Positions 1-32,237 of a stretch of DNA of 64,000 nucleotides are shown piece by piece. Location: positions 32,001-96,000 of the forward strand of contig CAWJTV010000006.1 in the NCBI GenBank assembly GCA_963845755.1. The letters are read 5' to 3'. Positions within the stretch are counted from its first letter, which is position 1; each line of letters begins with the position of its first letter. A program made the position numbers and the translations under genes. The notes beneath the pieces are model-generated. The model was not told where the DNA came from and did no database searches. It was given only the letters and a program-made list of their open reading frames with translations. This DNA is from an uncultured Planctomycetota bacterium. GTDB lineage: Bacteria; Planctomycetota; Planctomycetia; Isosphaerales; Isosphaeraceae.

Positions 1-1955
1 TCCGACCGAAGTATGGGCAAGGATGGCAGCCCGGGCTCGATCCCCGTCCAAGGCAGGCTGACAGCCGCGGTCTTGGAGAGGATGAGTCAACATGATTACA
101 TCTCAACGGAGGTCAGCCCTGAGCCCTCCCGTCACCCGCCATTTCGAGTTCACCCGGTTTCAGGATGAGGCGATCGCGCTGGCATACCAGGCCTTGATCC
201 CGGTCGTTTCTCGCCACCGGGAACGGTCGCGATCGCGATCTCACGACAACGAGCAGGCCACCACAACGATGCAGGGACTCCGATCAAAGGCCAGAGGAGC
301 TTGACCCGTCATGCTCAATTGCGATCTCTGTGTGGGGACCTATGGCCGGGTCTCCGGGGACCAACAGTCCAAGGAGGACACGATCGCCAGCCAGCTTGAG
401 GCGATCAGGCAGCGCGTCGCGAGCGACGGCTTGGTATGCTCCCCCGAGCTGTGCTTCGTGGACGATGGCTACACCGGGGATACCCTGGTCCACCCGGGCC
501 TCGAACGACTTCGGGACCAGGCCGCTGCTGGGACCATCGATCGCCTCTACATTCTCGATCCCGATCGACTTTCACGCAAATATGCCTATCAGGTTTTGAT
601 ACTCGAGGAACTGGCCCGGTGCGGCGTTGAGGTCGTCTTCCTGCACTCCCCTGGGCCACGGACCCGAAGAGAACCTGCTTGTGCAGGTCCAGGGCATGAT
701 CGCCGAATACGAGCGTGCCAAGATCATGGAGCGGTGTCGCCGAGGCAAGCAGTACGCCGCCCGCCACGGCTCGGTCAACGTGCTCAGCGGCGCGCCGTAT
801 GGCTACCGCTACATCGGCAAGCATGAGGGCGGCGGCGCGGCGCGTTATCAGGTCGTGGCCGACAAGGCGCGGATCGTGCGGAAGATCTTCGGGTGGGTCG
901 GCCAGGAACGATGCTCGATCGGTGAGGTTTGCCGACGTCTGCAACGCGACGGCGTCCCCACGCGGACGGGCAAATCGGCCTGGGACCGCTCGGTGATCTG
1001 GTCGTATCTCAGGAACCCTGCCTACAAGGGGACGGCCGGCTTCGGCAAGACGCCGCGCGGCGCCCTCAAGCCGAAGCGGCTGCGAGCGCAACGCGGCCGT
1101 CCTGAGCAGCCCCGGCGTCCTGTCTCTCGGGTCGATACATCCGCGCAAGAACAAATCTTCATCGATGTCCCCGGTTTGGTGAGCGAGGAACTCTTCGGGA
1201 CGGTTCAAGCTCAACTCGAGGAGAACCGGCAACGCCGGCGCGAACGGCTCCGTGGCGACCGCTATCTCCTCCAGGGGTTAGTTGTCTGCAAACGGTGCGG
1301 CTACGGCTGCTACGGCAAGCCGGTGAGCCGGGCCTCGGCCAAGGGGAAGGTCCCCTACGCCTACTACCGCTGCACCGGCTCCGACGCCTATCGTTTCGGT
1401 GGCCAGCGACTGTGTTGGAACAAGCAGGTCCGCACGGATGTCTTGGACGCCGCCGTCTGGGAAGATGTGCGTCATCTCTTGTCCGAGCCCGAACGGGTTC
1501 GAGTGGAGTACGAACGGCGGCGGCACGGGCCGGAGACAGGCCCAGACCGCGAGGTGAAGCATCTCAACAAATTGATTGCGAATCTAAAAAAGATGATCGC
1601 TCGATTGATCGATGCCTACGGCGAGGGATTACTTAACAAGTCGGAGTTCGAGCCGAGGATCTTGGCAGCGCGCGAGCGCCTGGCCAAACTAGAGGATGAG
1701 TGTCGGCAGCAGATTGACGAGGCCAACCAGGAAGCCGAACTGCGGCTGGTGATCGGCCAGTTGGAGGAGTTCGCGAGACGCGTTTCCCAGGAGTTGCACG
1801 AGCCGGACTGGGCCACGCGACGGGCGATCGTTCGGGCTTTGGTGAAGCAGGTCGAGATCGACGAGCAGGAGGTCCGCATCGTGTATCGGATCAGTCCGTC
1901 CCCTTTTGAGGGAGGCCCCCAACAGGGTTCTTTGCAACATTGTTGGGGGCGTGAT
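1..1955 (+). mobile_element. LSR element 1 (left end outside window), inserted antisense into group II intron RT at the PQGSPI motif
   Basis: Minus-strand RT frame reads ...GRGSPQGSPI, then departs from the expected SPLL at ~1947-1955, where the LSR C-terminal coding sequence ends; exact junction unresolved. Confidence 0.75.
92..304 (+). CDS. small accessory ORF upstream of LSR1
   Basis: 70 aa ORF, purine-rich GAGAGGA upstream, stop 6 nt before the recombinase ATG. Confidence 0.5.
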   Translation: MITSQRRSALSPPVTRHFEFTRFQDEAIALAYQALIPVVSRHRERSRSRSHDNEQATTTMQGLRSKARGA

Positions 1956-2204
1956 CGGCGAGCCCTGGGGGCTCCCTCTCCCCTCGTCCTTGTTCCGGGT
2001 GGTCCGATGACGATGGCCCCGCGCGTCGGTCTCTTCCACCGGTGCCTCCAGCCACATCTTGATCAGCTTCAGGACGAAGCGGTCGCTGATGCGCCGGGAC
2101 AGCGATTTCATCAACTCGGCATGGGGTATCGCGTCGAACGAAACCCTACCTTGATACCTCATTCAACAAGCCACTCGCGTCCACGCCCGAGGAGATCGAG
2201 GTAA
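311..2204 (+). CDS. large serine recombinase LSR1 (one frameshift near 655)
   Basis: YGRVS catalytic motif, DDGYTG, DRLSR, GAPYGY, YLLQGLVVCKRCG and YYRC zinc ribbon, coiled coil; ORFs 311..826 and 627..2204 join; recombinase-like sequence ends ~1950 (QHCWGR). Confidence 0.92.
1953..2138 (-). pseudogene. ltrA: group II intron RT, middle fragment (FDAIPH...PQGSPI)
   Basis: FDAIPHAELMKSLSRRISDRFVLKLIKMWLEAPV...GSPQGSPI = RT subdomains 3-4. Confidence 0.92.
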
Positions 2205-2476
2205 CCGACCCGACTCATCCCCTCTTCGGTCGCCACTTCCCCGTCCTCTCGGTCTGCCGGCCACCCCACGGCACCCCGTTCGTGCTCGTGGCCTATCGCG
2301 ACGCGATGCGGCTGCGCATCCCACTGTCTTCGACCAGCCTGGCACCGAGCCCGATCCACCCTCCTCGGACAAGATGGACCGCGGAAGCCATCCAGGAACT
2401 TCTTTCCTTGGTCACGGAGGGTGACACGTCATGCCCCAAGCCCAAGACGTCTGGTCAGTGCTCCCGTCAGCCCTGA
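2135..2476 (+). CDS. start-less accessory ORF of LSR element 2 (EVTDPTHPLFGRHF motif); 116 aa when completed in the circle
   Basis: Open frame from the att core to TGA 2476; in-frame RBS and ATG lie at 4570-4586 at the other end of the element. Confidence 0.7.
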   Translation, partial: RTKPYLDTSFNKPLASTPEEIEVTDPTHPLFGRHFPVLSVCRPPHGTPFVLVAYRDAMRLRIPLSSTSLAPSPIHPPRTRWTAEAIQELLSLVTEGDTSCPKPKTSGQCSRQP

Positions 2477-2664
2477 GACAGCAGGTGATCGACGACATCA
2501 CGGCCATCTACGCGGAGGTTATCCATGAGCATTTCCGAACACATTACCCCGTTCCATCTCGGCCGCAAGGCCCTGATCTATGTCCGCCAGTCCAACCCAC
2601 ATCAGGTCCTCACCCACCAGGAGAGCCGTCGTCTTCAGTACGCCCTCCAGCAGCGGGCTCGTGA
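2431..2664 (+). CDS. small ORF overlapping the LSR2 start
   Basis: GGAGG RBS then MPQAQDVWSVLPSALRQQVIDDITAIYAEVIH; overlaps both neighbours. Confidence 0.45.
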   Translation: MPQAQDVWSVLPSALRQQVIDDITAIYAEVIHEHFRTHYPVPSRPQGPDLCPPVQPTSGPHPPGEPSSSVRPPAAGS

Positions 2665-4571
2665 GTGTGGCTGGGCGGCCCGAGGACATCGAGATCATCG
2701 ACGCCGACCTCGGCCAGACGGCCAGCACCACTCAAGGCCGGCAGGGATTCCAGGAGATCGTCACTCGGGTCACCCTCGACCAGGTCGGCATCATCTTCTC
2801 TTATGATGTCACCCGACTGTCACGCAACTGCACCGAATGGTACCCAGTCCTCGACCTCTGTGGATTCCGCCGTTGCCTCATCGGCGACCGAGACGGGATC
2901 TACGACCCCGCTACAATCAACGGTCGCCTCTTGCTCGGGCTGAAGGGCCAGATCTCCGAGCTGGAGCTTCATACGATCAAGGCTCGCTTGACGGCCGGCC
3001 TGCTCAACAAGGCACAGCGCGGCGAGCTGGCCCTGTCCCTCCCCGTGGGACTAACACGCGACCCACTGGGCCGCGTCGTGAAGCGACCGGATCGCGAAGT
3101 CCAGGACCGCCTCGACCTCGTCTTCGCCACCTTTCTCCGCATCCGCACCCTCAGTGGGGTCGTCCGTGCATTTCGAGATGAGGACTTGTTGCTACCTCGA
3201 CATGACGACTTCGGCGAAGTCGTCTGGCGCCGCCCAACCGTCCCCTCCGTCCGCTCCATCCTGAAGAACCCGGCGTACGCCGGGTCATTCGTCTACGGCC
3301 GCACCCGGACCGTGAGAGACGGCCCGGGCCGTCGGCCGGTCCAGAAGCCGTTGCCGATGTCCGAGTGGCGAATCCATATCCGGGATATCTATCCCCCCTA
3401 CATCGATTGGGCCACTTATGAGAAGATCCAGGGCATGATCCGCGACAACCACAGCGAATACGATCGGAACCAGACCCGGGGTGTCCCCCGGCCGGGGAAG
3501 GCCCTGCTCCACGGGCTCGTCGCCTGCGGCGAGTGCGGCCACAAGCTGACAGTGCAGTACAAGTTCAAGACGCAATATATTTGCAACTCGATGTGGAAAC
3601 AGCACCGCGCTCCGGTCTGCCAGCGGCTCCCTGCGGACCCGATCGATGACCACGTCGTCCGCCGCTTCTTCGAGGCGTTAGCCCCCGCGGAGTTGGACGT
3701 CTACGACCGGGTCCGGGCCTCGCTCTCGGAAGAACAAGAGCAGATCGGGCGGGCGCGACGGCAGCAACTCGATCGGCTCCGCTACCAGGCTCGACTCGCC
3801 GAGCATCAGTACCAAAAGGCCGACCCCGACAACCGCCTCGTGGCCGCCGAGCTGGAGCGCCGATGGGAGGTGGCTCTGCGGGAGTTGAAAGAGGCCGAAG
3901 AGGCATGGGAACGCGAGCAACACGAACAAGCGACACTGGAGCGTCTCGACCCCGAGACACGGCGGGCACTTACCGAAGCCGGGGAACGAATCCCGGAATG
4001 GTGGCGGGCCGACCGTTTCTCGCAGGAACAGAAGAAGGCGCTACTCCGGAGCCTGATCGACAAGGTCGTCGTCCAACGTACGGCGCCGGACATCGTGCGC
4101 TGCCGGGTTGTCTGGAAGGGAGGTGAGACGACGGACGCCGACCTCGCGGTCACAGTCGGTGCCTGGTCACGCCTGTCAGGCGGCCAAGTGATGGAGCAGA
4201 CGATCCTGGAACTGGCCCGGCAAGGAAAGACCGACCAGGAGATCGCCCGGAGATTGACCGAGGAAGGCCACCGTTCGCCACGGCATGCAATCGTCCTGCC
4301 GAGTACGGTCCAGGCCATCCGTCTGCACCATCGCCTGTACCGCGACCGGAGACGAGCACATCCGCGGCGGATCGCGGGGTTCCTGACCGTGCCGCAACTC
4401 GCCTCGAAGTTGAAGCTTCCCCGAAGCTGGATCTACGACCGCATCCACAATTGCAAGATTCAAGTTGATCTCGATGCCACATGGAAGCTCTATCTGTTCC
4501 CCGACAACCCTGAGACTCTCACCCGGTTTCGGCAACTCGTGGCTGGGAAGCTCAACACCTTACGTTTTTAG
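2525..4571 (+). CDS. large serine recombinase LSR2 with C-terminal HTH-like extensions (frameshift near 2675)
   Basis: YVRQS, DADLG, TRLSRN, LLHGLVACGECG, DPDNRLVAAELERRW; GGAGG RBS before ATG 2525. Confidence 0.92.
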
Positions 4572-4591
4572 GAGGGCATCAAGATGCCGTC

Positions 4592-5109
4592 TCGAAGTAA
4601 CCGGAAAGATCGCCGTCGACCACCTCGGTATGCCCGTTCCGGACCAGCCGTTCGACTTGCCTCACGGCGTCGAGGGCGCTCCGTCCTGGGCGATACCCGT
4701 ATTGCTCCGGCTCCAGGTCGGCCTCGAAGATCGGCTCCAAGACCAGCACCGCGGCCATCTGCGCTACGCGGTCCTTGATGCAGGGAATCCCCAGCGGCCT
4801 TTGCTTGCCATCCGGTTTAGGGATGTACACGCGTCGGATCGGCTGGGGTGAGTACGTCCGCTTCTTGAGGTCGTCCGCCAATTCGTCCAGCCATCGGTCC
4901 AGTCCGTATGCTTCGATGTCGTCGAACGTCTGGCCATCGACCCCGGCGGCGCCACCGTTGGCACGGCAGCGGGCGTAGGCTTCCTCCAGGACGTCGCGGC
5001 GATAGACCTTGTCATACAGCGCATAGAACCGATAGTCAGGCGACCCCTTCGCTTTGGTGTGCAACGCCGTCTGGAGTTTCTGAACCGTCGGTGGAGGTGC
5101 TAGGCTCAT
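4592..5109 (-). pseudogene. ltrA: group II intron RT, N-terminal fragment
   Basis: RFYALYDKV, GAAGVDG, RVYIPKPDGKQRPLGIP, DRVAQ, YGYRPGRS, VVDGDLSGYF. Confidence 0.95.
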
Positions 5110-5630
5110 TGCCAATCTCCTGGCTCTCATGCCCCTTGTGACGCTGACCTTGAACTGAGGCCCCTTTGCTCCGCCGGCGTTACCCGGCTTCCTCGCTCAT
5201 ACGGGCCTCTCCGCCACCTCGGGCGGCCCGACCTGGCCCTCGCGGGTTGTCGGTTGAGGGTCACGCGCCCTCACCGCCGAGGCTTCCCGTGTTGCGTCGG
5301 ATCTCCTCTGCAGGCATGCCACCGCCAATACCCCGGTGGAACCCTGGGAGCGTGTCGCGTCGTGAGGGGTAACCCCCTCTGTCTCCCAGGACGGCGGCCT
5401 TCCCCGTATAGCAACCGGGTCGGCTTCCACATCGGGTTGTTTCGGGGCTTGCACGGCGTTCACTGTCGTTGCGGCCTGCCTGCTCGCCGAACCGCCACAG
5501 CGGCCCGTTGTCTCGAAGGCTTCGACGGCTTTGTCACCTCCGCCGCCGCTCCGATCGCTACCGGATGGAGCGACCAGTTTTCCGGGCGGGATTCGCACCC
5601 GCTGAAGATCCGAGCCTTTTCACGGCGCAC

Positions 5631-5645
5631 TGCTATCGGAACCCC
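5631..5645 (-). repeat. outer 15 nt of a 38-bp GGGG-type (Tn3-like) terminal IR; 5' exon of the intron
   Basis: GGGGTTCCGATAGCA matches the IR at 30818-30855 at 14/15. Confidence 0.7.
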
Positions 5646-5770
5646 AGCCCGCGTTCGGTGAGTTGGTCCAACAAGGTATCCAGGAGGAGCTGTCCGGCTT
5701 GGCCATTGACCAGGCGAGCGCGGAACTCGCTGAGCACGGTGTGGTTGAACCCAGGATCGTCCAGTTCTAG

Positions 5771-7236
5771 TACTACTCCGTTAAAATTTCCATTTGTTGG
5801 GTGTAGAGATGAGCACAAGGGTGGCAATACGGACAATCCGGTCGCGCCCGTGGGCTCAGCAACCGCTGCAAGGCGCGACGGATCGCCGGCAAGGTGATCC
5901 GTCGCGCCTTATCCCCTTTTTTTCTCGGCACGGCCGGGTGCTCTTTCTCTCGAAGTTGTTCCAGGACCAGGAAACCGAACGCCAACATCACCAGGCAGAC
6001 ATGGTGATGGAAGCCGCGCCACGAACGGCCCTCGAAATGATCCAGACCCAACTCCTCCTTCATCTGTTGGTAGCCTTGCTCGACCGGCCATCGGCTCTTC
6101 CACAATCGGACCGCCCGCAGCCGCGGGGTGTCGGCCGGCAGGTTGCTGAAGGCGTACTTCAACGTGCCGTCGGCCTGCCGCTCGATCAACAGCCAAATCG
6201 GCTCGGCCCCGGCACAGTCGCCCGTGGCCCAGCCGCCGCCGGGCCAGACCCGCAACCAGGCGAAGTGGCCCGACAGCTTCCCTTTGGTCCCCTCGCGCCA
6301 GGTCACCTTGTGCAGGGTCGTCCGTGCCGCCAGGTCCTTCAGGCTCACGGGCCGGGGGGTACCCTCGGCCAACCGGGGCCGCCGCCGCGGCCGTCCGCCC
6401 GTCCCCTCAGGCCGCGCCGCTGGCCCGGGTGGCTCCCACTGAGGCTCGGCGGTGAAGACGACCATCTCGTCGGTGACACCCACGATGTACGCCAGCCCAC
6501 GAGCGGCCAACCCCTTGCGAAAGTCCTCCGAGACCCCGTAACCGGCGTCGGCCACGGCGAGCCACCCCGGCAGCCCTTCGCCGCGCACCATGTCCAGCAA
6601 TCCCAAGGCGATCTCGCCTTTGGTCTGGGCTCGACGGACGGCCTCCGGAACACCCGCCGCGCCCAGTCGCTTCGGATCCTGGATCCAGGAGTCGGGCAAG
6701 AACAGCCGCATTGCCAACGGATAATGGCCCTTGGGGCTAACGTAGTGGACCGAGGGGGCCACCTGGCAATTGGCCTTCTTGCCCAAGGCCCCGCAATATT
6801 GCCTCTGGACACCGACGGAGTGCTTCCCCTGCTTGGGGAAACCCGTGTCGTCGAAGACGAAGATCCCTTGGGGGCTGGCGAAGGTCTGGGCCAGGTGCTT
6901 TCGATAGTCGCGTGCGAGCTCCTGGTCGTCCCAGGGGCTCTGGTTGACGAACTGCTGGAGGGCCTGCTCCTTGTCCTTGACGTCCAGGTCCGGCGGGAGC
7001 GTGACGCGACCGGAGAGGGGCTCGATGCTCTTGCGTTCGCCGTCCTGGAGCAGCCCTTGGAGAGAGACCCCGCTCCAGGCGGCCTGCGCCTTGTGGGAGA
7101 AGCCATCGCGGAACACGTCCGCATAATCCCGAAGTCGCTCGAGGACTTCGGGCGTCAGTTCGGGGGTGTAAGTCTTGCTCATAATGATCATACGAACAAA
7201 GGCCCCGAGAAGTTCGTAGGATCTAACGGAGTAGTA
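5771..7236 (-). mobile_element. IS701-family element
   Basis: 13-bp perfect IRs TACTACTCCGTTA; CTAG duplicated at 5767-5770 and 7237-7240. Confidence 0.95.
5773..7191 (-). CDS. IS701-family transposase
   Basis: DDTGFPKQGKHSVGVQRQYCGALGKKANCQV, ADAGYG, RWPVEQGYQQMKEELGLDHFEGRSW. Confidence 0.95.
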   Translation of the reverse strand: MIIMSKTYTPELTPEVLERLRDYADVFRDGFSHKAQAAWSGVSLQGLLQDGERKSIEPLSGRVTLPPDLDVKDKEQALQQFVNQSPWDDQELARDYRKHLAQTFASPQGIFVFDDTGFPKQGKHSVGVQRQYCGALGKKANCQVAPSVHYVSPKGHYPLAMRLFLPDSWIQDPKRLGAAGVPEAVRRAQTKGEIALGLLDMVRGEGLPGWLAVADAGYGVSEDFRKGLAARGLAYIVGVTDEMVVFTAEPQWEPPGPAARPEGTGGRPRRRPRLAEGTPRPVSLKDLAARTTLHKVTWREGTKGKLSGHFAWLRVWPGGGWATGDCAGAEPIWLLIERQADGTLKYAFSNLPADTPRLRAVRLWKSRWPVEQGYQQMKEELGLDHFEGRSWRGFHHHVCLVMLAFGFLVLEQLREKEHPAVPRKKGDKARRITLPAIRRALQRLLSPRARPDCPYCHPCAHLYTQQMEILTE

Positions 7237-7239
7237 CTA

Positions 7240-8248
7240 GAGTCGCCTTACGTTTGCATTGCATACGCCGCACGGTGTCCGAACCAGCCCGCGATATCCT
7301 CGGGGAGTCACGTCATGCAAGGCCGAGACGAACGCCGCATAGACCGCCTCCTTCGTCCGCGCCGCCATCGATCGCATCGCACCTTTAATCTTCGAGGCCA
7401 TCTCCTCATAGGGCGTCAGGTCCGGACTCCACGGCGGCAACGGCACCAAGTCGGCCCCGGCCCCCGCGACAGCCTCGGCCGCCTCCTCCGACTGGTGCGA
7501 CGACAGGTTGTCCCAGATGACCACGTCGCCGGGCTTCAACTCCGGGACCAGGACATCCTCCACGTAGTTCTCGAACATGGCCTGATTGGTGGCGCCGGGA
7601 AGGCCAACGCCGCCGTCACCCCGGAGAGGCGAACCCCGCAGGTGAGCGTGATCGAATCCCAGTGGCCGGGGGTATCGGTGTAGACGCGCTGGCCCACCGG
7701 GGCACGGCCGTAGGTCCTCGTCATGGACGTGTTGGCCCCGCATTCGTCCACGAAAACCAGCCGGTGCGGGTCGATGCCGGAGAGGGCCTCACAGAAATCC
7801 CGCCGTTTCTCCTGGACCTCCGGGCGATCCTGCTCGTTGCGCGCGGGACCTTCTTCTTGCGCGGCAACCCCAGCTTGTCCAGGGCGCGACAGATGGCGGC
7901 GGTGCTGCAAGCGACGCCGAGGCGCTTTTGCAACTCTTCGAGGGTGGCGTCGGGCTGCTGGCGGACCAACTCGCGGAGCCGCTCGTAATCCTCCGGTCCC
8001 AGCGCCGGCGGATGACCGCCGCGGTGGGGCTTGGGCGCGATCGAGCCGGTCCGGCGGTGGATCTGCAACAAGCGAACGACGAACGAGAGGCTGACGACGA
8101 AGCGGCGAGCGATCTGACGGATCGAGCCCTCGCCGCGCTCGACCGCGTCCAGGACGCGTTGTCGGAGATCGTGGGAATACGGGGACATGGGTCACCTCCT
8201 CACGAGAATCTCCGTTCAAATCGTATGCCATCCAACCGTTCGGCGCTC
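7240..8248 (-). mobile_element. IS630-family element, copy 1 (split transposase 8188 to ~7250)
   Basis: TA flanks; YSHDLRQRV HTH, FVDECG, IWDNLSSH, LPPWSPDLTPYE; near-identical to 24033-25041. Confidence 0.93.
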
Positions 8249-14090: not shown

Positions 14091-14672
14091 TCACGTCGCC
14101 CCCTCGGCTTGCCTGAGATAAGCATAAAGCGTCGGCCTGGAAATGCCGACCACCTGGCAGATTTCGCCCACCGTCTGTTTTTTCTGCCGGTACAGCTCGA
14201 CGGCCAGGGCACGCTGCTTGTCGCCGAGCTTCGGCCTTCTGCCGCCCTTCCTCCCCCTCGCTCTGGCCGCCGCCAGCCCGGCATGCGTCCGTTCGCGGAT
14301 CAGATTCCGCTCGAATTCCGCCAGGGCGGCGAAGATGTGGAACACCAGCTTGCCGCCCGGCCTCGTCGTGTCGATGGCCTCCGTCGTGCTCTGGAAACCG
14401 ATCCCCTGCTCCTCCAGCTCGCCCATCAGCTCGATCAGATGCTTGAGCGACCGCCCCAGCCGGTCGAGCCGCCACACCGCCAGCGAATCACCCGGCCGCA
14501 GCATCTCCAGCACACGCTCCAGCCCGTCGCGTTTCACCTTGCCACCGCTGGAATTGTCCTCGATGATCTTCCCGCACCCCGCCGCCTTGAGGGCATCGCG
14601 TTGCAGGCTCAGATTCTGCTCGATGGTCGATACGCGGGCATAACCGATCTTCATCCCCTTCGCCTTTGCCAT
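14091..14672 (-). CDS. small serine resolvase/invertase with C-terminal HTH
   Basis: IGYARVST, RLDRLGRS, AEFERNLIRERT, GISRPTLY. Confidence 0.95.
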   Translation of the reverse strand: MAKAKGMKIGYARVSTIEQNLSLQRDALKAAGCGKIIEDNSSGGKVKRDGLERVLEMLRPGDSLAVWRLDRLGRSLKHLIELMGELEEQGIGFQSTTEAIDTTRPGGKLVFHIFAALAEFERNLIRERTHAGLAAARARGRKGGRRPKLGDKQRALAVELYRQKKQTVGEICQVVGISRPTLYAYLRQAEGAT

Positions 14673-14689
14673 CCCTTGCCCCCTTACCG

Positions 14690-28529: not shown

Positions 28530-29151
28530 GCGACTGCCCTCTCCAGGTGTCACCGGGTGTCCGCGGGAATGCAGACGTCATTCCGATGGCAGTTTCCCGA
28601 CAATTGTAAGATCAGGAGGAGATCCGATCAACCGGCATCATCCATCCGGGTGCAGTCGCGTTCCTGTGGGTGCCGATCCAGGGGCAAGGCGACCCGTCCC
28701 CGGACGCTCGAGAGCGACCCCGCCGCCGATACCCAGAACGCCCCGCTCGACCGTCTCCGCTGACGAATGCCCCTGGCCGTTGCGACCCGGCCTCCGCTGG
28801 CCCTCCTGCCCGTACGGCCTCATCCCTTCCACGGGACGGCTCATCGGCGCGATCGGTCTCTCGACCGCCACGCTGCCGGTGCGCGTGGCGAATGAGTGCA
28901 GACCGAGGCTCGGCTGACCGCCCTCCGGCACAGGATCTTCGACGGCAAACTGGACCGGGCTCGGCCCGATTTCCTAAGGGAGGTGCGGTGGTCGGACGTT
29001 GCGGCCGCAGCCCGACAAAGTGGCCCTGGTACCCCTCCGAGCCTGGCGAGTGGCCCCGATCGGCGGTCCCAGCGAGCGCAAGCCGCGTGCCACCCTGTCG
29101 GCTCCGTGGCAGCCCTGAGGGTTGCGCGCTTCGGTGTCGTCGGACGAATGG

Positions 29152-29739
29152 GTGCGCCGTGGCCAAGGTTTGTCTGGTCTTGTCGGGAGTGCCCCGACCC
29201 CGCTGGAAGAAGGCGGGTCAAACGTTCCGCCTACCTTCAACCGAAAGGATCGAGGGGACCACAGCATGCGGAAGAAGCGACGTGAGGCCCAGCGTCAAAG
29301 GGCCAAGAGTCGTTCGCGAGTTAGGCCACGCAGGGGTAAGGCTGGATTGCTTGAACTCCAGTCCCAGGGGGTGTGACCGACCGCCGCCGGGAAAGACGCG
29401 GAAACCCGGATTCCTGTCTCCCGGGGATCGGCCATTCGCCCCCGTGATCTTCCGGCAGGACACACCCTGCAATGAGCAGGGGCAAGGGATCAACGGAGGC
29501 CCTCAACGTGGAACGGACCTGACAGACAACCACGGGATCGCCTAAAGGTCGCAAGGCCCAGGGCGACAGAGTCCCCGTAGTAGGCATCGGCCCAAGGGGG
29601 ACAGGACACAGGGCTTCACCAAGAACGGGGTGACTCGGATGAGTCATTCAGCCCTGCTCAGGCTTGAAGCGCTGCGGAAGTGGTTGGACCGTGACACCAA
29701 TGTAGATCCTGTGTCTGGAGAGCCGGATGCACGAAAACG
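29152..29739 (+). ncRNA. ORF-less group II intron A (5' end to first half of domain V)
   Basis: GTGCG start; EBS1 CCATTCG (29432-29438) complementary to exon CGAATGG; short ORF stub; ends GAGCCGGATGCACGAAAACG. Confidence 0.8.
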
Positions 29740-30471
29740 GTGCGCCGCGGAACGCGGTGTTGAATCCCTGACTCAGACAGGAGGAGCTCGGAGGGTTGCT
29801 CCTGGGTCATCCGATTGACCTGAAGGCGAAAGCCGGAGGGGAAAGGAGCATGTCGGAAAAGCGGGGGCCACTGGAAGACGCTGAAGGTGTCGTCCCGCAA
29901 GACCCGCGTGATAGGGCGAAAGCTGCATTGCCTGAATCCCAATCCCCAGCGGTGGAAGACGCACACCCGCTGCTACAGCGTCTGGAATGCAGCGCCACCA
30001 GGGGCGGATCGTTCGCGTTTTGCGATCGGCCACCTCCGACTGGCGGGGCGATGAAGAACGACTTCATTGAAGGGGATGAGTGGGGCGCCTCAGTCACGCT
30101 CGATACGTTCAACACCAACGGAACGTGGGATGGCCTAACGGGCGCGAGCCCCAGGGTCACGGAGTCTCCGTAGTAGTCCGAGGTGGGGAAAGCCCACCAC
30201 ATGGCGAAGGGAGACAGGTAGTCTGACGACCGAGACGTCAAGGTACGCGAGATGCGGTACGCCGAAACGATCTTGGGAGTTATCAGCGAACGTGGCGGCA
30301 CACGTTCAAAGCATAGACCACTGGCGAGCTGCTTGAGATCGAAAGACTCACGAGCGGTTCTGAGGGGGGCGGACGGAAAAGGACACAGCCGGTTACCCGT
30401 CACTGCCGCGGCATGACGAGCCCATAAACGAACTCCGGCATAAGCCGCACCTCGCCGGCCGCCTACCCTAC
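29740..30471 (+). ncRNA. complete ORF-less group II intron B (IIA-like), inserted in domain V
   Basis: GTGCG start, domain V GAGCTGCTTGAGATCGAAAGACTCACGAGCGGTTC at 30326-30360, CCCTAC end; RT stub MRYAETILGVISERG. Confidence 0.88.
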
Positions 30472-30603
30472 CCCGTCCGGTTCGATGAGCGGGGTGAGGA
30501 AACGGGGCATGGTCGAGATGGTGGGACACCCGCAGACGAAAGGGCGGGCTAACAGGGGAAAACAAACTTCGACCTAAACCACCGCGCCTCACCTCGACTC
30601 TAC
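30472..30603 (+). ncRNA. 3' end (second half of domain V plus domain VI) of group II intron C
   Basis: CCCGTCCGGTTCGATGAGCGGGG...CTCGACTCTAC. Confidence 0.85.
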
Positions 30604-30855
30604 ACGGAGAAAAAACCAACGGACTTGGCTCGTAGCCCCAGATCCACCGGGTTTTTCCTTCTCGAAACCCGTCTCTGGGGCCCTGATTCGAGAAATCGCA
30701 TTCGAGAACGGTTATCGAGAACCCAGAACTCGGGGAATTACGCGGGATCGGCCGAAACCCTTAAGGCTTCTCGATTACCATCGTTTGCAAGAGAGGCTCT
30801 GAACACCTGTTATCCGGAAGATCGTTGTTTTTTTCGCGATTACTATCGGAACCCC
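30604..30855. mobile_element. small non-autonomous element with 38-bp GGGG-type IRs; left IR cut by the intron
   Basis: Right IR 30818-30855; inner 23 nt of left IR 30604-30626; five internal TCGAGAA copies. Confidence 0.65.
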
Positions 30856-31262: not shown

Positions 31263-32237
31263 ATGACCGAGCCGCCCGACCCGAATGAGTCGACCGAACT
31301 GCCTGTCGCCGATCCCAATGCCGAGTTGCCGGCCCCTGACGAGGCCCCGGAGCGGATCTCGCTGGCTGTGCGACTGGCGGTCCTCGTCGTCATCATCGTC
31401 CCACTCCTCGGTGTGGTGGCCGCCCCGTTCATCGTCTGGGGCTGGGGATTCCGCTGGACCGATCTGGGCCTCCTGTTGAGCCTGTACGTCTTGACCGCCC
31501 TGGGGATCACCGTCGGCTACCACCGGCTGTTCGTCCACCGCTCCTTCGAGACGAACATCGTGGTCAAGTTCGTCTTCGCCGTCCTCGGCTCGATGGCCGT
31601 CCAGGGGCCGCTCCTGATGTGGGTCGCCAAGCACCGCCGACACCACCAGCACGCCGACACGGCGGGCGACCCACATTCGCCCCACGGCCACGGCGCAGGC
31701 GTCCTCGGCGTCTTGCGAGGCGTCTGGCACGCCCATATCGGCTGGCTGTTCGATCCCGACCCGCCGGACCTCGACCGCTACGTCCGGGACTTGAGACGGA
31801 GTCGTGCCCTGCGGGTGGCGAACGTACTATTCCCCGTGTGGATCGCCCTCGGCCTGCTGATCCCGGCAGCCCTCGGGGGGCTGATGACGAGGACGTGGGC
31901 GGGCGCCTGGACGGGCCTCATCTGGGGTGGGGTGGTCCGCATCTTCCTCGTCCATCACGTGACGTGGAGCATCAATTCGGCCTGCCACCTCTGGGGCCTG
32001 CGGCCCTATCGGAGCGACGACGAGAGCCGGAATAACGCGGTGTTCGGAGTCCTGGCGATGGGCGAGGGGTGGCACAACACCCACCACGCCTTCCCGACCT
32101 CGGCGCGTCACGGGCTGCGGTGGTGGCAGATCGACGTGAGTTACTGGGTGATCTGGGCGCTTGCCCGCCTGGGGCTCGCCTGGGACGTGAAACTCCCGAC
32201 CATGCAGGCCCAACGTCAGCGGCAACGGACCGCTTGA
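31263..32237 (+). CDS. acyl-CoA (delta-9-type) fatty acid desaturase
   Basis: His boxes HRLFVH, HRRHH, HNTHH; GEGWHN; AGGAGG RBS. Confidence 0.95.
   Translation: MTEPPDPNESTELPVADPNAELPAPDEAPERISLAVRLAVLVVIIVPLLGVVAAPFIVWGWGFRWTDLGLLLSLYVLTALGITVGYHRLFVHRSFETNIVVKFVFAVLGSMAVQGPLLMWVAKHRRHHQHADTAGDPHSPHGHGAGVLGVLRGVWHAHIGWLFDPDPPDLDRYVRDLRRSRALRVANVLFPVWIALGLLIPAALGGLMTRTWAGAWTGLIWGGVVRIFLVHHVTWSINSACHLWGLRPYRSDDESRNNAVFGVLAMGEGWHNTHHAFPTSARHGLRWWQIDVSYWVIWALARLGLAWDVKLPTMQAQRQRQRTA

Follow-up and report, generated by a model that had tools for sequence, protein, structure and literature searches.

A relic group II intron in an uncultured Isosphaeraceae genome and the probable homing of its clade into Tn3-family transposon ends

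Here, we describe two truncated group II intron fragments in a 64,000-nucleotide stretch of DNA (hereafter the window) from an uncultured Planctomycetota bacterium of the Isosphaeraceae (GenBank assembly GCA_963845755.1, contig CAWJTV010000006.1, forward-strand positions 32,001 to 96,000). On the basis of sequence comparison we judge it very probable that the feature is the relic of an endonuclease-less intron which carried an open reading frame (ORF) and whose clade uses the terminal inverted repeats of Tn3-family transposons, and those of their miniature derivatives, as targets for retrohoming. Placed end to end, the 5' and 3' exons of the two fragments form a 38-mer that matches an intact repeat in the window (30818-30855) at 31 of 38 positions (binomial chance 4e-13 at p=0.25, 5e-9 at p=0.35), just as an earlier note on this DNA had read it. 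We stress that this composite is a reconstruction and not a single intact insertion, because the junctions lie in two truncated fragments on opposite strands. A complete relative, found in the genome designated G084 (G, C and L stand for genomes, contigs and loci throughout), has the same two exons as the composite around a single intron (GGGGTTCCGATAGCA^ACGGAGAAAAAAAC).

Intron fragments and the repeat they divide

The fragments, their exons and the exon-binding sites (EBS) and intron-binding sites (IBS) through which the intron would recognise its target are laid out as follows (RT, reverse transcriptase).

5631..5645, minus strand: 5' exon, the outer 15 nt (positions 1-15) of a Tn3-family 38-bp terminal inverted repeat, GGGGTTCCGATAGCA; IBS1 ATAGCA (-6 to -1), IBS2 GGGTT (-14 to -10)
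4588..5630, minus strand: 5' part of the group II intron, with domains I-III and the start of the RT ORF (4579-5130, RVT_1)
5408-5413, read as reverse complement: EBS1 (TGCTAT)
5434-5438, read as reverse complement: EBS2 (AACCC)
30474..30603, plus strand: orphan 3' fragment of an intron, made up of 7-12 nt from the end of domain V, of domain VI and of the 3' splice site ..CTCGACTCTAC
30604..30626, plus strand: 3' exon ACGGAGAAAAAACCAACGGACTT, positions 16-38 of the left terminal repeat of a miniature element
30604..30855, plus strand: body and right end of this miniature Tn3-derived element (267 bp including the 15-nt exon), with the right 38-bp repeat at 30818-30855

On the minus strand the reverse complement of 5631-5645 (GGGGTTCCGATAGCA) continues straight into GTGCGCCGTGAAAAGG, the 5' end of the intron at 5630, and the same 15-mer also opens repeats that adjoin Tn3 transposase genes in relatives. 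The window copy has the 5' GUGCG and the domain I-IV architecture of a group II intron, recognised by Rfam group-II-D1D4-4 (RF02003) at 5464-5604 (minus strand, 100.9 bits, E 2.4e-21, cut-off 49), which is the sole Rfam match in the window exceeding its gathering score; the complete relative at L060 reaches 106.7 bits with the same model. Over 4588..5630 the window sequence aligns with nt 1-1043 of the complete G084 intron at 90.7% identity, and the TGCTAT inside the reverse complement of 5406-5415 (GTTGCTATAC) was recognised as EBS1 by covariation across about 118 family copies.

The intron end at 30603, already placed there by the earlier note, agrees both with the homologous 3' ends of two further copies in the host genome (C13 and C22, 95-98% identical to 30474-30603) and with the complete relative, in which the Rfam domain V-VI match stops at the equivalent base. 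That match (RF00029, spanning 7861-8006, E 6.5e-4) scores 32.1 bits, below the cut-off of 40, and together with the D1-D4 match it brackets the 2,006-nt intron at L060; the window copy holds only the 3' strand of domain V and domain VI. Compared with the G084 intron the fragment is 76.5% identical, the 3' strand of domain V (CCCGTCCGGTTC) being identical, and its domain VI has a bulged A seven nt from the end and a long insertion (both read by eye). An uninterrupted copy of 266 bp exists at C26:172881-173146, to which the adjoining 30604-30855 shows 79.8% identity over 253 nt, and because of this copy we identify the window element as a 267-bp miniature element whose left repeat has been split.

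Tn3-family inverted repeats are about 38 bp long and begin with GGGG. Within the 14.3-Mb host genome the 13-mer GGGGTTCCGATAG has six occurrences, two of them inverted and 266 bp apart at C26, and a 17-mer (allowing at most one mismatch) is present in 16 of 61 sampled related genomes, where it forms inverted pairs with spacings of 256 bp, 544 bp, 6,882 bp and 6,712 bp. The last of these, an element of G033, is bounded by repeats that match at 36/38 and by a 5-bp duplication (GTGAT), and it carries a gene for a Tn3 DDE transposase with DUF4158 (read here as two frames that overlap) together with genes for a resolvase and a subtilase; its resolvase module, like that of an element at G012:C17, consists of Resolvase + HTH_7 ORFs. 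Tn3-family transposases were found in 39 of the 121 genomes of the bacterial family, and the 3' ends inspected at 19 transposase loci gave the following repeats.

Transposases 85-100% identical to that of G033, seven genomes (G033, G080, G105, G022, G136, G119, G025; three open frames of 1,018-1,080 residues): GGG(G/C)TTCCGATAGCAACGGAG..
64% relative, G017: GGGGTTGCGATAGCAAACGG..
74% relative, G003: GGCCTTCCCGTAGCAGGCGG..CTAAG
39-43% relatives, six loci: G(G/C)(G/C)(C/G)(C/T)GTGAGTAGC(A/T)(A/T)TGGAAC..A(A/G)G

The variant repeats GGGGTTGCGAT.., GGCCTTCCCGTAGCA.. and GGGGCGTGAGTAGCA.. adjoin more distant Tn3 transposases. In six repeat-bounded elements the paired repeats agree at 29-37/38 positions, and a 5-bp target duplication is present in two of seven such elements (that of G033 and AAGTA at G084:C5). 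A TAAG motif at the inner end is typical of Tn3-family ends; B-type and GGCC-type repeats end in ..TAAG, ..CAAG or ..CTAAG, and the window-type (A-type) repeat lacks the motif, ending in ..AACGATCTTCA. Taken with the transposase that the repeat bounds in G033 and adjoins in seven genomes, these data identify the 38-mer as a Tn3-family terminal repeat, and the link to a transposase by which the earlier note's assignment could be checked was found.

The host genome itself holds a relic of the cognate transposon at C40 (L001, C40:81000-93000), in which a resolvase fragment 89.6% identical to that of G033 is accompanied by a CHAT-domain gene and a subtilase gene; the right repeat is intact (C40:91191-91228) and the left side is truncated beside an IS66-family transposase. 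The only PF01526 match in this genome is a single 57-residue Tn3 remnant, which does not adjoin such a repeat. Szuplewska and colleagues reportedly described miniature elements derived from Tn3 transposons (TIMEs), together with mobile insertion cassettes, in 2014, and the 256-267-bp elements with Tn3-type 38-bp repeats, as well as the 1.0-6.9-kb transposase-less elements (L061, L028), fit those descriptions; the miniature elements differ from TIMEs in that they are here the host of an intron and that most copies have no clear 5-bp duplication.

Recurrent insertion at position 15/16 and guide-target pairing

Matches to the intron family occur in 71 of the 121 genomes. We compiled 124 candidate 5' junctions, from 30 search loci, 88 fetched regions (80 selected out of roughly 150 listed matches whose 5' end is intact, and the 8 closest relatives) and 4 copies of the host genome, and took as one clade those copies that share the guide sequences of the window intron and are 87-100% identical to one another in the parts present. 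A midpoint-rooted tree built with FastTree from nt 1-430 groups the six clade members that it contains in a single clade. Thirteen distinct 5' junctions, each with a different outside flank, were recovered for this clade from 11 assemblies, and all 13 of the 15-mers that precede the intron resemble the outer 15 nt of a transposase-linked Tn3-family repeat (listed below); the known 3' exons, three in number, all continue the repeat from position 16. Unrelated exons, by which the earlier note's reading would have been refuted, were not encountered in this clade.

Window: GGGGTTCCGATAGCA
Host genome C11 (272-nt stump): GGGGTTGCGATCTCA
G084:C34: GGGGTTCCGATAGCA
G084:C5: GGGGAGTGAGTAGCA
G097, first junction: GGGGTTCCCGTAGTA
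G097, second junction (26-nt intron stump): GGGGTCCCGCTCGCA
G064: GGGGGTTGAGTAGCA
G029: GGGGTTTCGATAGCA
G095: GGCCTTTCGATAGCA
Three public contigs: GGCCTTCCCGTAGCA
One public contig: CCGATTCCGATAGCA

The minus-strand junction at L062, at which only 26 nt of intron are left, is counted among the 13 as a weak member. Of 12 loci from a scan of public sequences, three have flanks identical to known junctions and were not counted twice, and five proved to be unrelated introns that share just the exon end TAGCA, without a matching EBS, and were dropped. The two complete G084 introns (2,006 nt) are 99.95% identical to each other and sit at 15/16 of two different repeat types, one of them (G084:C5) in the left repeat of a 1,010-bp element whose repeats agree at 34/38 and which is flanked by the AAGTA duplication. 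We are thus highly confident that this clade uses Tn3-type transposon ends, at position 15/16, as its predicted landing site. The earlier note had extended this preference to the intron family as a whole, and here it stood for the window clade only, the more distant family members having other guide sequences and lying in other repeats or in unrelated sequences.

Occupied and empty ends, which the earlier note had proposed to compare, were counted as well. In the host genome three occupied junctions (two in the window and the one at C11) stand beside four full-length uninterrupted repeats (C6:62855, C26 twice, and C40:91228, a perfect target that is unoccupied), one variant (C24) and two partial ones. 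A degenerate 20-mer for uninterrupted repeats gave 2-23 matches per genome in five other intron-carrying genomes, versus 1-5 for a control, the 23 matches coming from G084, which holds two introns; occupied ends are therefore a minority.

The guides were read from an alignment of 120 family copies. For EBS1, six consecutive columns pair with exon positions -1 to -6 in 94-101 of 117-118 copies per position, each through four to six pair types, and for EBS2, pairing with -13 and -14 is seen for two columns of the CGAAA-N6-AYGTG loop, in 91/119 and 88/119 copies (G-C in 59 and 52, A-T in 20 and 25). The EBS1 of the window intron (TGCTAT) matches repeat positions 10-15 and its EBS2 (AACCC) positions 2-6. 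In the GGCC-type copies that are long enough to read (n=2), EBS2 is AAGGC in both and matches GCCTT; EBS2 changes with the repeat variant (AACCC/GGGTT versus AAGGC/GCCTT), which we interpret as natural retargeting. The pairing of the EBS1 loop with ATAGCA^AC, proposed by the earlier note, is borne out by covariation for -1 to -6, and its extension across the junction to +1/+2 finds no support family-wide: a delta-delta' pairing beside EBS1 was rejected, as only 9 of the 31 copies with known 3' exons can form a pair between +1 and the base adjoining EBS1 on its 5' side. It does hold in L061, the sole window-clade copy among the 31, where it may be due to chance.

Several observations weigh against the proposed homing into Tn3-family ends. 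The window contains no intact insertion, its 5' and 3' junctions being truncated fragments 25 kb apart on opposite strands, and the flanks of the composite show no 5-bp duplication (GGGCT versus ATGTC), which is likewise missing from five of the seven repeat-bounded elements (the window composite among them). At 9 of the 13 junctions the 5' exon alone is known, one clade junction (L159) has CCGA in place of GGGG or GGCC at -15 to -12, and pairing is imperfect at several targets, with two IBS1 mismatches at C11 and only 3 of 5 pairs with EBS2 at G084:C5. No cognate transposase was found in the host genome assembly (87.9% complete), in which a tblastn search with the G033 transposase gave no match. 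Finally, most copies of the repeat are empty, and homing would therefore be at best inefficient or recent.

In a rival explanation the repeat-like exons are not true homing sites: the introns could have landed ectopically, or the 15-mer could have been carried along by exon co-conversion, the likeness to a transposon end being incidental. The L159 junction, which keeps just 11 nt of the motif, the several sites that pair imperfectly and the more distant family members found in unrelated sequences would all fit this explanation, yet the 3' exons continue the repeat too, the invaded element at G084:C5 has both a partner repeat and a target duplication, EBS2 changes along with the repeat variant, and 13 of 13 junctions agree; we therefore regard it as very unlikely. 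It is hardly credible that the 38-mer is a repetitive extragenic palindromic (REP)-like or other host repeat instead of a Tn3-family end, for although sister intron clades do occupy REP-like repeats flanking Y1 transposase genes, the A-type repeat has no inner TAAG motif and the miniature copies show no target duplications, the repeat bounds elements with a Tn3 transposase, a resolvase and 5-bp duplications and overlaps the 3' end of the transposase in seven genomes.

Proposed mechanism, known systems and the wider intron family

Homing into Tn3-family ends, the reading we prefer, allows a sequence of events to be proposed. The full protein encoded at L060 (448 residues) has RVT_1 and GIIM domains and no HNH/En endonuclease match, and the intron protein is 50-56% identical to rhizobial plasmid ltrA genes (class-unassigned). 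The intron RNA would pair with the outer half of the repeat (EBS2 with positions 2-6, EBS1 with positions 10-15) and reverse splice at the 15/16 boundary, entering the strand on which 5'-GGGG is read inward. Synthesis of cDNA would most likely be primed from nascent DNA at a replication fork, as for RmInt1 and RmInt2, because the protein has RT and maturase domains only; the retrohoming of these two introns is described as biased to the strand that templates lagging-strand synthesis (PMC4615759). The insertion would move the cleavage end about 2 kb away from most of the sequence to which the transposase binds (repeat positions 16-38). In the case of Tn4430, protection by TnpA is reported to cover some 30 bp on the inner side of the 38-bp repeat, contacts with the outer part and the flank being confined to the paired-end complex (PMC10250215). 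Given this pattern of protection, a repeat split at 15/16 should be a dead end, and the invaded transposon end should be disabled, or immobilised, at the DNA level, perhaps with some benefit to the intron. In the host genome the lineage is extinct, all of its family copies being defective (the window RT broken twice, the C22 copy split by a recombinase element, the C13 copy without an ORF, and the C5 and C11 copies reduced to stumps).

Intron homing into transposon terminal repeats is already published, all genomic copies of RmInt2 in Sinorhizobium meliloti GR4 being described as located in ISRm17 inverted repeats (Martinez-Rodriguez et al. 2014, PMC4615759). Judged by that account, the intron described here is like RmInt2 in being an endonuclease-less intron in terminal inverted repeats, with two sites per element on opposite strands, and in relying on EBS1/EBS2 recognition with IBS2 mismatches tolerated; the head-to-tail tandem copies reported for RmInt2 (PMC4615759) are paralleled here by tandem copies in a sister clade (G090). 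Unlike RmInt2, its host is a Tn3-family replicative transposon with miniature derivatives and not ISRm17, and a single clade occupies several diverged repeat families at the fixed position 15/16, with EBS2 retuned (AACCC or AAGGC), in planctomycete-type genomes. The homing site of RmInt1 is described as lying in ISRm2011-2, inside the insertion sequence (IS) and not in a terminal repeat, and its target as being read from about -14 to +1 by RNA pairing, with a lagging-strand-template bias (PMC4615759). The present intron is like RmInt1 in that its RT lacks the DNA-binding and endonuclease (D/En) domains and that it resides inside another mobile element; unlike RmInt1, for which the account places the site inside the IS and gives a critical distal T-15, it sits within the terminal repeat, with G at -15 in 8 of 13 junctions.

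A literature search, mostly confined to journals without subscription, returned no report of a group II intron within a repeat of the Tn3 family. Novel in the present case are the family of transposon, a position kept fixed across diverged families of repeats, and the retargeting of EBS2 in nature. Group IIC and IIC-attC introns target terminator stem-loops and integron attC sites, and do so without EBS2, by recognising a hairpin; the intron described here resembles them in its specialisation on a repeated, structured DNA motif and not a gene, and is unlike them in that EBS2-IBS2 pairing is seen by covariation and that insertion falls inside the repeat. After RmInt2, it would be the second independent case of a lineage of group II introns specialising on the terminal repeats of transposons, and a broader one, as it spans many genomes and several repeat families at one position. 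Tn3-family elements mobilise many resistance and catabolic genes, and a natural RNA-guided element that splits Tn3 ends would offer both a ready-made probe of the cooperation between the outer and inner halves of the repeat and a case study of parasite-on-parasite control.

Across the wider family, GGGG stands at -15 to -12 in 31 of 96 distinct junctions, versus 23 of 2,112 positions at other offsets, and farther upstream than -15 the base composition is flat. The motifs GGGGTCAGACC.. or GGGGAC.. are occupied by sister clades whose EBS2 is GACC or GTCC, and another clade has AT-rich targets. At L148 of the host genome (G000:C27:322800-327570; one locus checked) the sister-clade motifs GGGGACATAACGAAT and GGGGTCAGACCAGGTTTC flank, in inverted orientation, two frameshifted Y1_Tnp (IS200-like) genes, and sister-clade motifs also form inverted doublets of 66-82 bp (C36:198701-198776, C45, C47); such arrangements are like those of REP/REPIN sequences beside genes of REP-associated tyrosine transposases (REP/RAYT-like). 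For Pseudomonas putida, 2 of 9 intron copies are reported as REP-associated (PMC1525189).

Some further features of these relatives were observed. Several of the sister-clade targets are palindromes, GGTGTCAGT^TCATTTTTCCG for instance being directly followed by the inverted copy CCGGAAAAATGAACTGACACC (host C13:208948-209726, L044, L089), and many of their 5' flanks contain 2-3 tandem partial copies of the target motif. The locus L095/L099 (G090:C25:420838-425463) holds at least two, and probably three, head-to-tail sister-clade introns, in which ..CTCGACTCTAC is directly followed by GTGCGCC. On the Buttiauxella sp. plasmid pBTX_57 (L183, NZ_CP033075.1:12945-22288), an intron whose protein is 59% identical to that of G084 has the opposite-strand exons GGGGGCCGCTTGGAAAACG^AAATTATCCTACGTTAAG, equivalent to a Tn3-like 38-mer split at about position 19 and in the opposite orientation.

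A bolder reading, which we consider doubtful, is that the whole endonuclease-less intron family may live on the termini of DNA transposons (Tn3 repeats, and REP-like repeats around Y1 genes), reprogramming EBS1 and EBS2 and keeping insertion about 15 nt inside a terminus that starts with GGGG; retrohoming would then be timed to transposition, the invaded end would be sterilised, and the introns would act as hyperparasites that limit the spread of transposons. A coupling of retrohoming to transposition is no more than conceivable. According to the textbook scheme of replicative transposition, a fork entering the transposon end would use the invaded strand, on which 5'-GGGG is read inward, as template for lagging-strand synthesis. 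Tn4430 is reported to transpose into replication forks (preprint, 10.64898/2026.05.30.728999), and Tn3-family elements, IS608 and a group II intron protein are named among the users of the beta clamp (PMC11417375).

Local history and neighbouring elements

The inner ends of both intron fragments are bordered by other elements, as listed here.

2139..4587, plus strand: large-serine-recombinase element of about 2.45 kb (ORF 2580-4571: Resolvase, Recombinase, Zn_ribbon_recom)
1947..2138, minus strand: RT fragment, residues 179-242 of the G084 protein (tblastn 90.6%), stopping at the QGSP motif, where a second recombinase element adjoins
1..1956, plus strand (start 63 nt before the window, C6:31937): large-serine-recombinase element of about 2.03 kb, its right end adjoining the N-terminal half of the window intron RT
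29152..30473, plus strand: stack of other intron sequences, inside domain V of the intron that ends at 30603 and separating that intron from its upstream part

Serine-recombinase elements break the RT gene of the window intron twice, and its 3' third is absent. The 2.45-kb element, a later invader and no part of the intron, cuts the gene at 4587/4588, between ..GYFxT and ..IPHAEL (..DLSGYF on one side, D.IPH.. on the other). The left end of the 2.03-kb element adjoins the N-terminal half of a different RT gene, which stands head to head with that of the window intron; as the element is flanked by halves of two different RT genes, the rest of the window intron is missing there, and the different gene beyond it suggests a deletion or an exchange between two copies of the element. 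About 660 nt of the window intron (from the C-terminal half of the RT to domain V) are found nowhere in the assembly. On the 3' side, the domain V-VI match of another intron lies at 30324-30403 (37.6 bits), and a repeat family at 29121-29739 (560-nt + 58-nt) occurs in at least 8 other contigs. The flanks proved uninformative, being single-copy in the genome and giving no Pfam match for the flank peptide; neither flank is present in the same-genus genome G001, and the GC skew is flat.

Two histories may account for the fragments. We give close to an even chance to two independent insertions, in two copies of the repeat, each later truncated by nested elements and recombination. The outer flanks differ and carry no target duplication, the different RT gene on the left of the recombinase element at the 5' fragment is as expected if a deletion between two copies of the element had removed the intron's own 3' part, domain VI of the 3' fragment is most similar to other subfamilies, and independent hits on several repeats within one genome are seen in G084 and G097. 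This course of events nevertheless demands that two insertions should have been reduced to halves that exactly complement each other, and no second miniature-element remnant was found beside the 5' junction.

A single insertion, to which we lend tentative and somewhat less than even credence, would make the junctions at 5630 and 30603 the halves of one intron in the left repeat of the miniature element, parted by an inversion between nested repeated elements and followed by deletion of the middle. The two exons complete one repeat, exactly as found around one intron in the complete relative, each fragment lacks what the other holds, and their order and opposite strands are as expected from an inversion with one breakpoint in the intron; moreover, the 3' strand of domain V (at 30474) does not differ from its counterpart in the G084-type intron, and both inner ends carry invading elements through which recombination could have taken place. 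Against it stand the outer flanks without a 5-bp duplication, the ~660 nt of intron absent from the assembly, a domain VI nearer to C13/C22 (95-98%) than to the G084 type (76.5%), and breakpoints that could not be traced; G001 has neither flank and the GC skew is uninformative.

The 2.03-kb recombinase element has perfect 25-nt terminal inverted repeats around a GATC core and is inserted at an RT motif (between ..QGSPI and SPLL..), and copies 94-95% identical to it were found in the C22 intron and at C24, C16, C47 and C3. An IS at 5768-7240, 122 nt outside the 5' exon of the intron, encodes a DDE_5 transposase (5773-7191, minus strand) and has inverted ends TACTACTCCGTTAAAA, with CTAG on both flanks. 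Farther along the window, at 14115-14675 (minus strand), lies a resolvase homologue that is 46.8% identical to the resolvase of the G033 transposon.

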